Of a stretch of 64,000 bases of DNA, positions 49,064 through 51,464 are shown one piece after another. Source of the DNA: Alphaproteobacteria bacterium (GTDB lineage: Bacteria > Pseudomonadota > Alphaproteobacteria > GCA-2731375). The DNA lies in NCBI GenBank assembly GCA_965232515.1, contig CBDDPY010000002.1, forward strand, positions 6,080,001 to 6,144,000, in the 5' to 3' direction. How positions within the stretch are numbered: position 1 is the first letter of the stretch; each line of letters starts with the position of its first letter. A program made the translations under genes and the position numbers. The notes beneath the pieces were generated by a model, which saw nothing but the letters and a program-made list of their open reading frames with translations, was not told where the DNA came from and ran no database searches.

Positions 49064-49756
49064 CTACTCCGCCGCGGCGGAGTCGAACAGGCCGCCGATG
49101 TAGAAGCCGCGCCGTTTCAGGCTGGCGACCCATTCGTCGGCGAAGCTCGGCGCCACCGAGCCGGTGACGATCTCGCTCGCCAGCAGCGCGTCCGACCAGG
49201 CCTTGACCTGCGGGAAGTCGTTCAGCAACCCGCTTTGCAGCCGCTGCTCGGCCATGTCGAAGCGCTGCAGGAACGGCGCATAGGCCGCGTCGACAAGGCA
49301 CAGCTTGTCGCCGTTGAAGTAGGGACCGTCATTGCCGCGCTCCTGCGCGATGGCGTCCTCCAGCTTTTGCAGCACCTTGGGCGCAGCCGCCAGACCCTCG
49401 TCGACGCCCTCGCGAGTTGCCTGGTAGTAGACGCCACTCAGGCCCTTGGAGAAATCCGGCACGAAGTCGGTCCAGGCCCGGTTGCGGGCTCGCTTGATCG
49501 GGTCCTCCGGATGCAGGCGCGGCGGCACCACTTCGTCCAGGAACTCGGCGATGGCGTTCGATTCGAACAGCGGCTCGCCGTCCACGTTCAGCACCGGCAC
49601 CTTGCCGTGCGGCGAGATCTCCAGGAACCAGCCCGGCTTCTCACGAAGATTGATGTAGGTGACCTCGAACTCGACCTGTTTCGCACGCATCACGATCACG
49701 GCGCGCTGAACCCAGGGTCAAGTTACCGAGCTCACCAGATGATATTTGCTGGCCAT
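49064..49756 (-). CDS. Glutathione S-transferase (omega-like), probable selenoprotein with Sec13 (in-frame UGA)
   Basis: ATG 49756 reads MASKYHLVSSVT-UGA-PWVQRAVIVM...; the UGA (49718-49720) sits at the catalytic C of the CP(W/Y/F)VQR motif; SPHGKVPVL and FESNAI are intact; hairpin follows the UGA. Confidence 0.85.
49673..49720 (-). other. Candidate bacterial SECIS element
   Basis: mRNA UGACCCUGGGUUCAGCGCGCCGUGAUCGUGAUGCGUGCGAAACAGGUC: upper stem GCGCGC(C)GU/AUGCGUGC with G-initiated loop GAUCGUG 20 nt after the UGA; lower stem GACC(C)UG/CAGGUC. Confidence 0.6.
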
Positions 49757-49830
49757 AACAGTGTTTCCGACATCTCGGTTGCTCAGGCCGCCAGTCTCTC
49801 CCATTGTCTGGCCGAAGGAAAGCGTCGTCG

Positions 49831-50433
49831 CTAGGCGGGCCGGCAGATCATCTCGACCGCATCGTCGGCGAATTTCACCAGGCTGGCCTTGGCCTCGCCC
49901 AAGCGGGAGCGCAGCGCCAGGCTGTGCAGCACCGCCTGCGCCAGCTTCGCCGCCGCCTCCGGCGCGCGCGACGTCGGGAACTGGCCGTCGTCCTGGGCTT
50001 GCCGAAACCGACGCGTCAGCATGTCGTCGATCTGGCTCAGCAGGTGCTTGACGTCACGCCGCACCTCGGCGTGCACGACGGCCTCGACCGGCGCCGTGCA
50101 GAAGGCGAAACAACCGCGCGCCGGCTTGCCGCCGCAATAGACGTCGAGCGCGGCGCGATAGAGCTTGCGCAGCGATTGGGCGAGGTCGGGTTCGTCGGTC
50201 AATCGGTCGCCGACCTCGGTCTCGAGCTGCGCCGCGAACCGTGCCATGGACCGGCGGTAGATCATCTCCTTGTCGCCGAATGCGTTGTAGAGGCTGGGCC
50301 GGTTCATGCCCGTGGCCCGGGCCAGATCGTCCAGCGACGTGGCGGTAAGGCCCTGGGTCCAGAACAACTGCATCGCCGCTTCCAGCGCCTCGTCGGGATC
50401 GTACTGCCGTGGCCGGCCGCGCGGTCTGCTCAT
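49831..50433 (-). CDS. TetR family transcriptional regulator
   Basis: RGRPRQYD, FWTQG..ATSLDDLARATGMNRPSLYNAFGDK, RGCF. Confidence 0.93.
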   Translation of the reverse strand: MSRPRGRPRQYDPDEALEAAMQLFWTQGLTATSLDDLARATGMNRPSLYNAFGDKEMIYRRSMARFAAQLETEVGDRLTDEPDLAQSLRKLYRAALDVYCGGKPARGCFAFCTAPVEAVVHAEVRRDVKHLLSQIDDMLTRRFRQAQDDGQFPTSRAPEAAAKLAQAVLHSLALRSRLGEAKASLVKFADDAVEMICRPA

Positions 50434-50494
50434 TTTTGTACCTATTCGCATAATTTAATTGACTCCGATAATTTTATGCGGAACGATACAAAAA
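50433..50494. promoter_or_regulatory. Twin inverted TetR operators in the tetR/GST divergent region
   Basis: Reverse complement of 50433-50453 is TTATGCGAATAGGTACAAAAA; 50474-50494 is TTATGCGGAACGATACAAAAA (17/21); TTGACT -35-like hexamer lies between them. Confidence 0.7.
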
Positions 50495-50516
50495 ATCCAG
50501 ACCGCGAGACCCGACC

Positions 50517-51464
50517 ATGCCCAGAATCGACCATCCCAAGAGCCCCCTCGTGCCCAAGCTCCAGGGCCTGCATCTGTTCCACTTCGAAGGCGCGCCCTGC
50601 GCCCAGCGCGTCCGCTTCGCGCTGGCGGAAAAGGGCCTGGCGCGGGACCGGGACGTCGCCTGGCAGTCGGTCGCGCCCGACACGCTCGTTGCCGAGACCG
50701 GCACCTGGATCAGCCGGCATGTCTCGCTGGTCAAGAAGGACCACCTGACCGACGCCTACGCGGCAATCCACCCGAACCTGGTTGTGCCGGCGCTCGTGCA
50801 TGACGGGCGGCTCTATATCGAATCCATGGACATCGTGGACTACATCGACGCGACCTGGCCGGAGAACCGCCTGGTGCCGGACGACTCCGACCGCGCGGCG
50901 CTGGCCCGGTCACTGGTCGACCAGGCGAAGGCGCTGCATGTTTCAGTGCGTTACGTGTCGTTCCGCTGGGGCCTGGGTCGCCTCGGCAAGCTGAACGCCA
51001 GCGACGAAGAAAACCTGCGACGCCTCGAGACCGACGGTTCGCCCGAACAGCTCGTCAACTTCTATGAAAGATATGACCGCGGCCAGATCGAGGAGGCGAC
51101 CTTCGCCGAGCACCTGGCGGCGCTCGAGGGCGGCTACGGGGCGCTGGAGCGGCTGTTGTCGGGCGACGGCCAGCCGTTTCTGACGGGCGACAGCTTCAGC
51201 ATCGCCGACATTATCTGGTCGCTGAAAGTGCTCAGGATCGAGGAATGCGGCTATCCCTTCGCCGCGAACTTCCCGGCGCTGTTCGCCTGGTATGGCCGGG
51301 TGACAAGCCGGCCCGCGTTCAAGGAGGGCGTCATGTCGCGGCATACGGCGATGAGCCGGACCTTCAAGCTCAAGGCCGCCGCCGCGAACCTGATGGGCCA
51401 TGGTCTGAAGCAGGCGAGCCGGCGCCAGGATAAGACCGGTGGGAGCGCGGCGAGTGCCGCGTGA
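50517..51464 (+). CDS. Glutathione S-transferase family protein
   Basis: LFHFEGAPCAQRVRFALAEKG, HPNLVVPALVHDG, IESMDI, FLTGDSFSIADI. Confidence 0.87.
   Translation: MPRIDHPKSPLVPKLQGLHLFHFEGAPCAQRVRFALAEKGLARDRDVAWQSVAPDTLVAETGTWISRHVSLVKKDHLTDAYAAIHPNLVVPALVHDGRLYIESMDIVDYIDATWPENRLVPDDSDRAALARSLVDQAKALHVSVRYVSFRWGLGRLGKLNASDEENLRRLETDGSPEQLVNFYERYDRGQIEEATFAEHLAALEGGYGALERLLSGDGQPFLTGDSFSIADIIWSLKVLRIEECGYPFAANFPALFAWYGRVTSRPAFKEGVMSRHTAMSRTFKLKAAAANLMGHGLKQASRRQDKTGGSAASAA

Follow-up and report, generated by a model that had tools for sequence, protein, structure and literature searches.

A predicted selenocysteine-containing glutathione S-transferase with a conserved hairpin behind its in-frame UGA codon in an alphaproteobacterial genome

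We analyzed a 64,000-nucleotide stretch of an alphaproteobacterial genome (the window; C2:6080001-6144000 of a 7.39-Mb assembly of 4 contigs that is 96% complete) and, within it, a glutathione S-transferase (GST) gene on the minus strand whose reading frame contains a single in-frame UGA codon. The full-length coding sequence lies at 49064-49756 and comprises 230 residues followed by the stop codon TAG (49066-49064), an extent given by translation with TGA as selenocysteine (Sec, U), by Pfam matches, and by orthologues that span residues 1-230. From the ATG start codon (49756-49754), 12 sense codons (MASKYHLVSSVT) lead to the TGA at codon 13 (49720-49718), after which the frame continues with CCC TGG GTT CAG CGC and stays open to the TAG. 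Read in this way, the frame contains zero other stops and gives the motif SSVT-U-PWVQR. In the table-11 list of open reading frames (ORFs), the gene is instead entered as 49064-49699, a product of 211 amino acids (aa) starting at the GTG of codon 20 (49699-49697), which lies inside the loop of the hairpin described below. A preliminary description of the window had quoted the same minus-strand sequence, the GTG ORF start, and an intact 230-residue frame, and an exact re-reading of the letters agreed with it on all three.

Reading frame and conservation of the UGA codon

The 230-residue protein matched GST_N_2 (PF13409) as its top Pfam domain (1.4e-17, residues 12-75), together with GST_N_3, GST_N, and GST_C_2, while an NCBIfam scan of the protein gave zero models at cut-off, the family being without an NCBIfam name. 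By a six-frame search of 40 related genomes, we found an orthologue in 23 of them, at 63-83% identity and with exactly one TGA inside each match. One further genome held a C-terminal fragment only, at a contig start, and the other 16 contained only paralogues of at most 40% identity. The TGA occupied the identical column in 23 of 23 orthologues, in the context KYHLISS[VI]T-U-PWVQRAVI; ATG stood at the start column in 17 of the 23 aligned sequences, with the conserved peptide M..KYHLISS(V/I)T next. In a further scan, with one genome per species, we found at least 515 relatives and analyzed the best 80 loci, a set that overlaps the 23 orthologues. At the Sec column, 75 of these 80 loci carried TGA and five carried TGC or TGT. 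As labeled, the 80 loci came mostly from metagenome-assembled genomes of Alphaproteobacteria (Rhodospirillaceae, Rhodospirillales, Defluviicoccus, and Hyphomicrobiaceae) and in some cases from Gammaproteobacteria, and several had record names pointing to sea water.

The best 120 database homologues fell into two groups. Thirty were full-length proteins with CPWVQR at 65-74% identity to the query, and more distant paralogues (30-38% identity) likewise carried cysteine (Cys) at the Sec column (LCPYVQR, SCPFAQR; CP[YF].QR). Because Cys is found in five loci, in the 30 full-length homologues, and in the paralogues, the gene belongs to a classical Sec/Cys pair; the preliminary description had suggested looking for just such an alternation of Cys and UGA in this column. 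The other 90 homologues were 208-217 aa long and covered 87-93% of the query. Four of them were aligned and started at query residues 16-23, past the Sec column, and one of the short homologues bears the NCBI name 'glutathione S-transferase family protein'. Judging from these records, Sec forms of this GST are routinely annotated too short, with the active site missing.

We then examined codon usage around the UGA in an alignment of the 23 orthologues, from which the partial one was excluded. Over codons 4-12 the amino acids were kept and the codons differed (Ser as AGC in 13 sequences and AGT in 10; Val in four codons), and codons 14 and 16 likewise combined a constant residue with a variable codon. 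Synonymous variation under conserved residues ahead of the TGA indicates that the upstream dozen codons are translated in the main frame.

The hairpin behind the UGA and the selenocysteine machinery

A hairpin resembling a selenocysteine insertion sequence (SECIS) occupies 49706-49683 on the minus strand. With the U of UGA numbered 1, an 11-nt spacer after the UGA is followed by a 6-bp stem in which positions 15-20 (GCGCGC, 49706-49701) pair with positions 33-38 (GCGUGC, 49688-49683). The 12-nt loop between them (49700-49689, CGUGAU...; CGUGAUCGUGAU) begins C21 G22 U23, and in the window's own sequence two more pairs are possible within it, which makes the fold a two-part one. The two-part stem-loop proposed in the preliminary description was thus recovered, while its statement that the loop starts with G, 20 nt downstream, proved approximate, the loop starting with C21 and the G following at 22. 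In the SECIS of E. coli fdhF, the archetype of SelB-binding hairpins in bacteria, which sits just 3' of its UGA, 11 nt separate that codon from the upper stem that SelB binds, and the apical loop exposes G-U near positions 22-24. The GST hairpin is like it in its 11-nt spacing and in a loop G-U near positions 22-24. It differs in sequence and in its 12-nt consensus loop, a conserved bulged U was not identified in it, and its role is predicted.

The hairpin region was highly constrained at the nucleotide level. Codons 17-24 (CAG CGC GCC GTG ATy ... TTG CGT) had a normalized codon entropy of 0.14, compared with a mean of 0.58 for the gene (119 usable columns). This was the minimum of the sliding windows, a value reached by 0 of 100,000 permutations, with a significance that is overstated because the sequences are related. 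There were 47 invariant columns of four- or six-fold degenerate amino acids; two of these used a single codon in all 23 sequences, and both lie within codons 17-24. In the species scan, the 75 Sec loci represented 60 distinct 45-mers. The 14-mer CAGCGCGCCGTGAT was exact in 72 of these 75 loci and in none of the five Cys loci, and the full 6-bp stem, in the main or a shifted register, was present in 73 of the 75 and again in none of the five. The six pairs of the main register were incomplete in seven divergent loci, five of which form the shifted stem (14-19 with 27-32) with the same loop start.

The hairpin core also recurs elsewhere in the genome. On both strands of the 7.39-Mb sequence, TGA-N11-GCGCGCCGTGA occurred twice, once at the Sec codon of the GST gene and once at the TGA of a GrdB/PrdB-like gene. 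The 11-mer GCGCGCCGTGA itself has a genome count of 29, from which 0.35 TGA-N11 cases would be expected by chance. A second selenoprotein gene of the genome, unrelated to the GST, has the core GCGCGCCGUGA at equal distance behind its UGA. It is this recurrence after a second Sec codon, together with the conservation in relatives, that places the hairpin above chance.

The genome contains a complete set of genes for Sec synthesis and insertion, as the preliminary description had taken to be implied by a Sec codon. We detected selC, the tRNA-Sec gene, at 71.6 bits against a 47-bit cut-off (tRNA-SeC with anticodon tca in ARAGORN), SelA at 524 bits, a SelB winged-helix domain at 45.6 bits within a 680-aa frame, and SelD at 290 bits. 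All four genes lie on contig C2 at 5.873-5.884 Mb, approximately 0.25 Mb from the Sec-GST gene. When SelA was searched at E <= 1e-30 in 41 genomes (the 40 related ones and the own genome), it was found in 21 of 24 genomes that carry the TGA-containing GST and in 5 of 17 non-carriers.

Several further features were observed around these genes. SelD forms the C-terminal half of a 774-aa frame (C2:5873480-5875804, minus strand), whose N-terminal half matches Pyr_redox_2 (1.6e-27); by its domain matches, this frame is a fused reductase-selenophosphate synthetase. Between selD and tRNA-Sec lies a gene for a candidate UGSC-family selenoprotein (C2:5875746-5876411, minus strand) with U141 in GD-UGSC-TSC, which scored 4e-57 for PF24696 and 155.6 bits for NF041046 against a 125-bit cut-off; an 8-bp hairpin with the loop UGUAU begins at +14, 13 nt past its UGA. 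The GrdB/PrdB-like selenoprotein candidate adjoins selA (C2:5884759-5885994, plus strand; TGA at C2:5885224) and is unannotated. It has U156 in UPFC (UxxC), matches PF07355 at 2e-09 and TIGR04483 PrdB at 9e-29, the latter below cut-off, and its UGA is followed by an 11-nt spacer and GCGCGC-CGUGA-GCGCGC. Formate dehydrogenase was considered as a Sec client and rejected, since the 19 TIGR01553 matches in the genome (e.g., C2:7170937-7171776 and C2:6665599-6666384) contained 0 in-frame stops. This protein, which bacterial Sec systems usually serve, appears to be Cys-type or missing in this genome, where the clients seem to be redox proteins such as the products of the GST, UGSC, and GrdB-like genes. 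A genome scan for TGA-interrupted genes based on G + C content at third codon positions (GC3) is not a census, and it overlooked the Sec-GST gene itself because the GC3 of the 12 upstream codons is below its threshold. In one fragmented related genome (71% complete), the SelA match at C158:6309-7322 contained one in-frame TGA.

Fold, active site, and the reading of the UGA

We modeled the 230-residue protein with AlphaFold2, which gave a mean predicted local distance difference test score of 82 and a predicted template modeling (TM) score of 0.83 (five models, 61-82). The model, the Pfam matches, and a Foldseek search agreed on a two-domain architecture with a thioredoxin-like N-terminal domain and a helical C-terminal domain. 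Strand beta-1 comprises residues 5-10, and U13 stands directly before the helix formed by residues 14-25 (alpha-1). The best PDB sequence matches were Leishmania TDR1 (4ags, 4e-26) and GSTO1 of rat and human (8qll, 1e-22; 1eem, 6e-20), followed by pyrimidodiazepine synthase, plant DHAR, and lambda GSTs; these belong to the GSTs of the Cys type, and tau-class enzymes were present too. In these alignments, U13 was paired with the cysteine of CPFAQR in rat GSTO1 and with the cysteine of each of the two domains in TDR1; the VP and ES motifs of the glutathione site were aligned as well. K52-V53-P54 and E65-S66, which align with GSTO1, are invariant in 23 family members. Query residue 8 corresponds to residue 27 of 1eem, so that U13 falls at residue 32 if the stretch is ungapped; Cys32 is the residue that we take to be catalytic in the omega class. 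The alignment thus put U13 where the preliminary description had expected it, at the catalytic Cys of omega-class GSTs.

The class assignment itself needs a qualification. An N-terminal extension of approximately 19 residues before beta-1 defines the omega class, and it is absent here, only four residues preceding beta-1. We therefore term the protein omega-like, as in the earlier assignment, and not omega-class. Omega-class GSTs and their relatives (GSTO1, TDR1, DHAR, and lambda GSTs) share with it the two-domain fold, the VP and ES motifs, and a nucleophile that stands where alpha-1 begins, within a C/U-P-aromatic motif with QR further on, whereas Sec in place of Cys, the missing extension, and an identity of only 22-28% in Foldseek set it apart. 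In that search, the model matched tau and omega GSTs with TM scores of about 0.65-0.73, and the tau-class Ser-GSTs match the fold as well as the omega GSTs do. The Xi class (YqjG-type), suggested by the CPW motif, was also considered and rejected: there was no such chain among the 60 PDB sequence matches listed and no such NCBIfam match.

From these features, a course of expression and catalysis can be proposed. Translation would begin at the ATG at 49756. At the UGA (49720-49718), the hairpin, 11 nt downstream and with G22-U23 in its loop, would recruit SelB with Sec-tRNA(Sec), and Sec would be inserted in place of termination. By analogy with the family, the selenolate would take the role of the omega-class Cys thiolate and attack a glutathionylated or oxidized substrate or a hydroperoxide. 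A selenenyl-sulfide would then form with glutathione docked at the VP and ES motifs, and another glutathione would restore the enzyme. On such a cycle, its activity would be that of a glutathione-dependent reductase, thiol transferase, or peroxidase and not that of a conjugating GST. Engineered GSTs whose catalytic residue is Sec are reported to show a peroxidase activity of the same order as natural glutathione peroxidase (GPx) (PMC9944854), which makes a peroxidase role of the natural Sec-GST chemically plausible. In both, Sec takes the place of the catalytic Ser or Cys of a GST, adjacent to the bound glutathione; the engineered enzymes, as that source portrays them, are laboratory constructs obtained by chemical conversion or auxotrophic expression, whereas the present one is natural and encoded by UGA and a SECIS, its activity being predicted.

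Taking these data together, we consider it highly probable that the gene encodes a 230-residue Cys-type (omega-like) GST in which the catalytic residue at the N-terminus of alpha-1 is Sec (U13, in UPWVQR) and in which the UGA is decoded through SelB and a SECIS; Sec incorporation and SelB binding are predictions from the sequence. The simplest alternative takes the UGA at codon 13 as a true stop and the product as a truncated GST that starts at the GTG at 49699 or at an ATG three codons on, with the upstream 12 codons as a leader or non-coding sequence. Gene callers do start at 49699, and 90 of the best 120 homologues are equally short. Such a product would lack the catalytic residue, all of beta-1, and residues 14-19, with which alpha-1 begins, and the model bears out the earlier remark that the GTG start strips off the first beta-strand and the active site. 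Moreover, residues 2-19 are conserved as protein under synonymous codon variation in the 23 orthologues, the Cys forms run unbroken through the region, and the TGA is invariant, whereas the stop of a leader could drift among the three stop codons. We therefore regard a truncated product as very improbable. Still less credence can be given to a pseudogene whose TGA arose by nonsense mutation or by an error of sequencing or assembly. A lone in-frame stop near the 5' end does resemble a fresh nonsense mutation of TGC or TGT, but the presence of this TGA in 23 of 23 orthologues as well as 75 of the best 80 species loci refutes this idea unless an artefact is shared. The rest of the frame is intact, and assembled contigs from two runs of one study agree on the TGA, including its A, a base on whose support by reads the preliminary description had made its proposal depend. 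One of them, a 7,480-base contig that spans the whole stretch of the gene with zero differences, may be the assembly's own source; the other is 150 bases long, comes from a second sample within that study, and matches 49700-49849, TGA included, with zero differences.

A third possibility is selenium-free read-through of the UGA, whether by Cys-tRNA(Sec) at low selenium, by tRNA(Trp) or tRNA(Cys) as near-cognates, or through a reassigned code; position 13 would then be Cys or Trp. Natural homologues do function with Cys at this column, and in other systems Sec codons can receive Cys. Against this stand the complete Sec machinery kept in the genome, the presence of SelA in most carrier genomes, and a conserved hairpin, lost in the Cys forms, whose spacing and loop are those expected for SelB binding. 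TGA is also an ordinary stop in the lineage, three of the orthologues terminating in TGA. Decoding without selenium is thus improbable in our judgment, if somewhat less so than a truncated product.

A number of observations weigh against decoding of the UGA as Sec through this hairpin, or limit what can be drawn from the evidence for it. The fold of the window's own segment is ordinary (z = -1.08; 29 of 200 shuffles as good or better), and the mean folding energies over positions +12 to +42 are similar in the Sec loci (-9.9 kcal/mol) and in the Cys loci (-9.5 kcal/mol; n = 5). No stem pair changed on both sides (12 of 24 sequences); the near-invariance of the stem leaves covariation unable to support or test the structure, which rests on conservation instead. 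An Rfam scan of 49560-49860 at E <= 10 returned zero matches. Three carrier genomes are without a SelA match; tRNA-Sec is present in two of them (71 and 68 bits), and in the third, which is 77% complete, tRNA-Sec above cut-off was not found either. The related genomes are not independent samples. A contig from an RNA library with another organism label covers 49638-50500 and may be DNA carry-over; being approximately 93% identical, it is not the sequence of this strain and does not demonstrate transcription. Finally, the genomic context gives no clue to the substrate, because the neighbors are not conserved: relatives of the adjacent TetR-family gene were found beside the GST at 0 of 102 loci and relatives of the adjacent CoA-transferase gene at 2 of 102, and the most common other neighbor cluster occurred at 9 of 81 loci.

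Relatives, evolution, and genomic setting

The preliminary description had presented the gene as a hidden selenoprotein, a label that does not hold for the family. In the part of the Sargasso Sea survey of 2005 that deals with new selenoprotein families, 'Glutathione S-transferase' is entered as one of them, with 4 sequences, COG0625, and widespread Cys homologues (Zhang, Fomenko and Gladyshev, PMC1088965). The GST selenoprotein family recurs, again as COG0625, in the Global Ocean Sampling survey of 2008 (Zhang and Gladyshev, PMC2398784). Two reviews also include a 'GST-like' selenoprotein (PMC9312934, 2022; PMC13188914, 2026), with PF13409 and one Sec in the table of 2026, and the later review calls the functions of the selenoproteins that it lists, GST-like included, largely uncharacterized. 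The present protein is like this marine family in its GST fold, in COG0625/PF13409, in a single Sec without a UxxC-type motif, in widespread Cys homologues, and in taxa and habitat. This likeness rests on fold, Pfam, the single Sec, and taxa, the Sec column of the published members not being confirmed as equal, and the 10 homologue clusters looked up contained neither of the published representatives, PPR62222.1 and MEK9676863.1. In contrast to the published marine members, this copy stands in a 7.39-Mb, 4-contig genome with the sel locus on the same contig. The Sec-GST is thus a genuine, mis-annotated member of a catalogued selenoprotein family and not a new kind of system. Because the family is catalogued, the novelty lies in a well-supported new member with a sharply defined SECIS, and the practical gain is a corrected annotation together with a well-defined SECIS-like hairpin whose core is common to a second selenoprotein gene of the genome. 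Furthermore, the natural Sec and Cys orthologues, at 65-74% identity, offer an existing pair with which the contribution of selenium to a GST scaffold could be studied.

We examined the relationship of the Sec and Cys forms on a quick IQ-TREE phylogeny (LG+G4) with the Sec/Cys column masked. Its 113 rows comprised 76 Sec forms, 35 Cys forms, and 2 Cys paralogues as the outgroup; all 80 loci of the species scan were kept, and the 23 related-genome loci were omitted as overlapping. Sec forms stood on basal branches and Cys forms were nested at several places. Parsimony gave 6 changes between Sec and Cys, of which the starred branches force at least two. A single Cys clade was rejected by the approximately unbiased (AU) test (log-likelihood difference 123.9, p = 0.00095), which was run after the tree had been seen and on a group defined by its codon. 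This pattern suggests repeated replacement of Sec by Cys, a direction that depends on the outgroup rooting. A bolder extension, which we advance tentatively and hold to be rather unlikely as a whole, is that Sec may be the rule and the older state in this GST lineage, with Cys forms having arisen several times, that the enzyme may be a natural glutathione-dependent peroxidase or reductase, and that GCGCGCCGUGA 11 nt after the UGA may be a lineage-wide SelB signature. If this were true, the GCGCGCCGUGA signature could guide a search for further unannotated selenoproteins among marine Alphaproteobacteria, and the enzyme would be a natural counterpart of the engineered seleno-GST peroxidase mimics.

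In the window, the Sec-GST gene is convergent with a gene for a family III CoA-transferase. Directly upstream, after a 74-nt gap, lies a gene for a TetR-family regulator on the minus strand (49831-50451; Pfam TetR_N and TetR_C_13). In the assembly as a whole, contigs C3 (5,516 bases) and C4 (10,862 bases) have G + C contents of 46% and 42%, compared with 65% elsewhere, and may be foreign or mis-binned. A second GST-like gene (50517-51464, plus strand; 315 aa, GST_N_3 and GST_C_2) is divergent from the TetR/Sec-GST pair, and its product has an ordinary Cys at the equivalent site, in the context A-P-C-A-Q-R.

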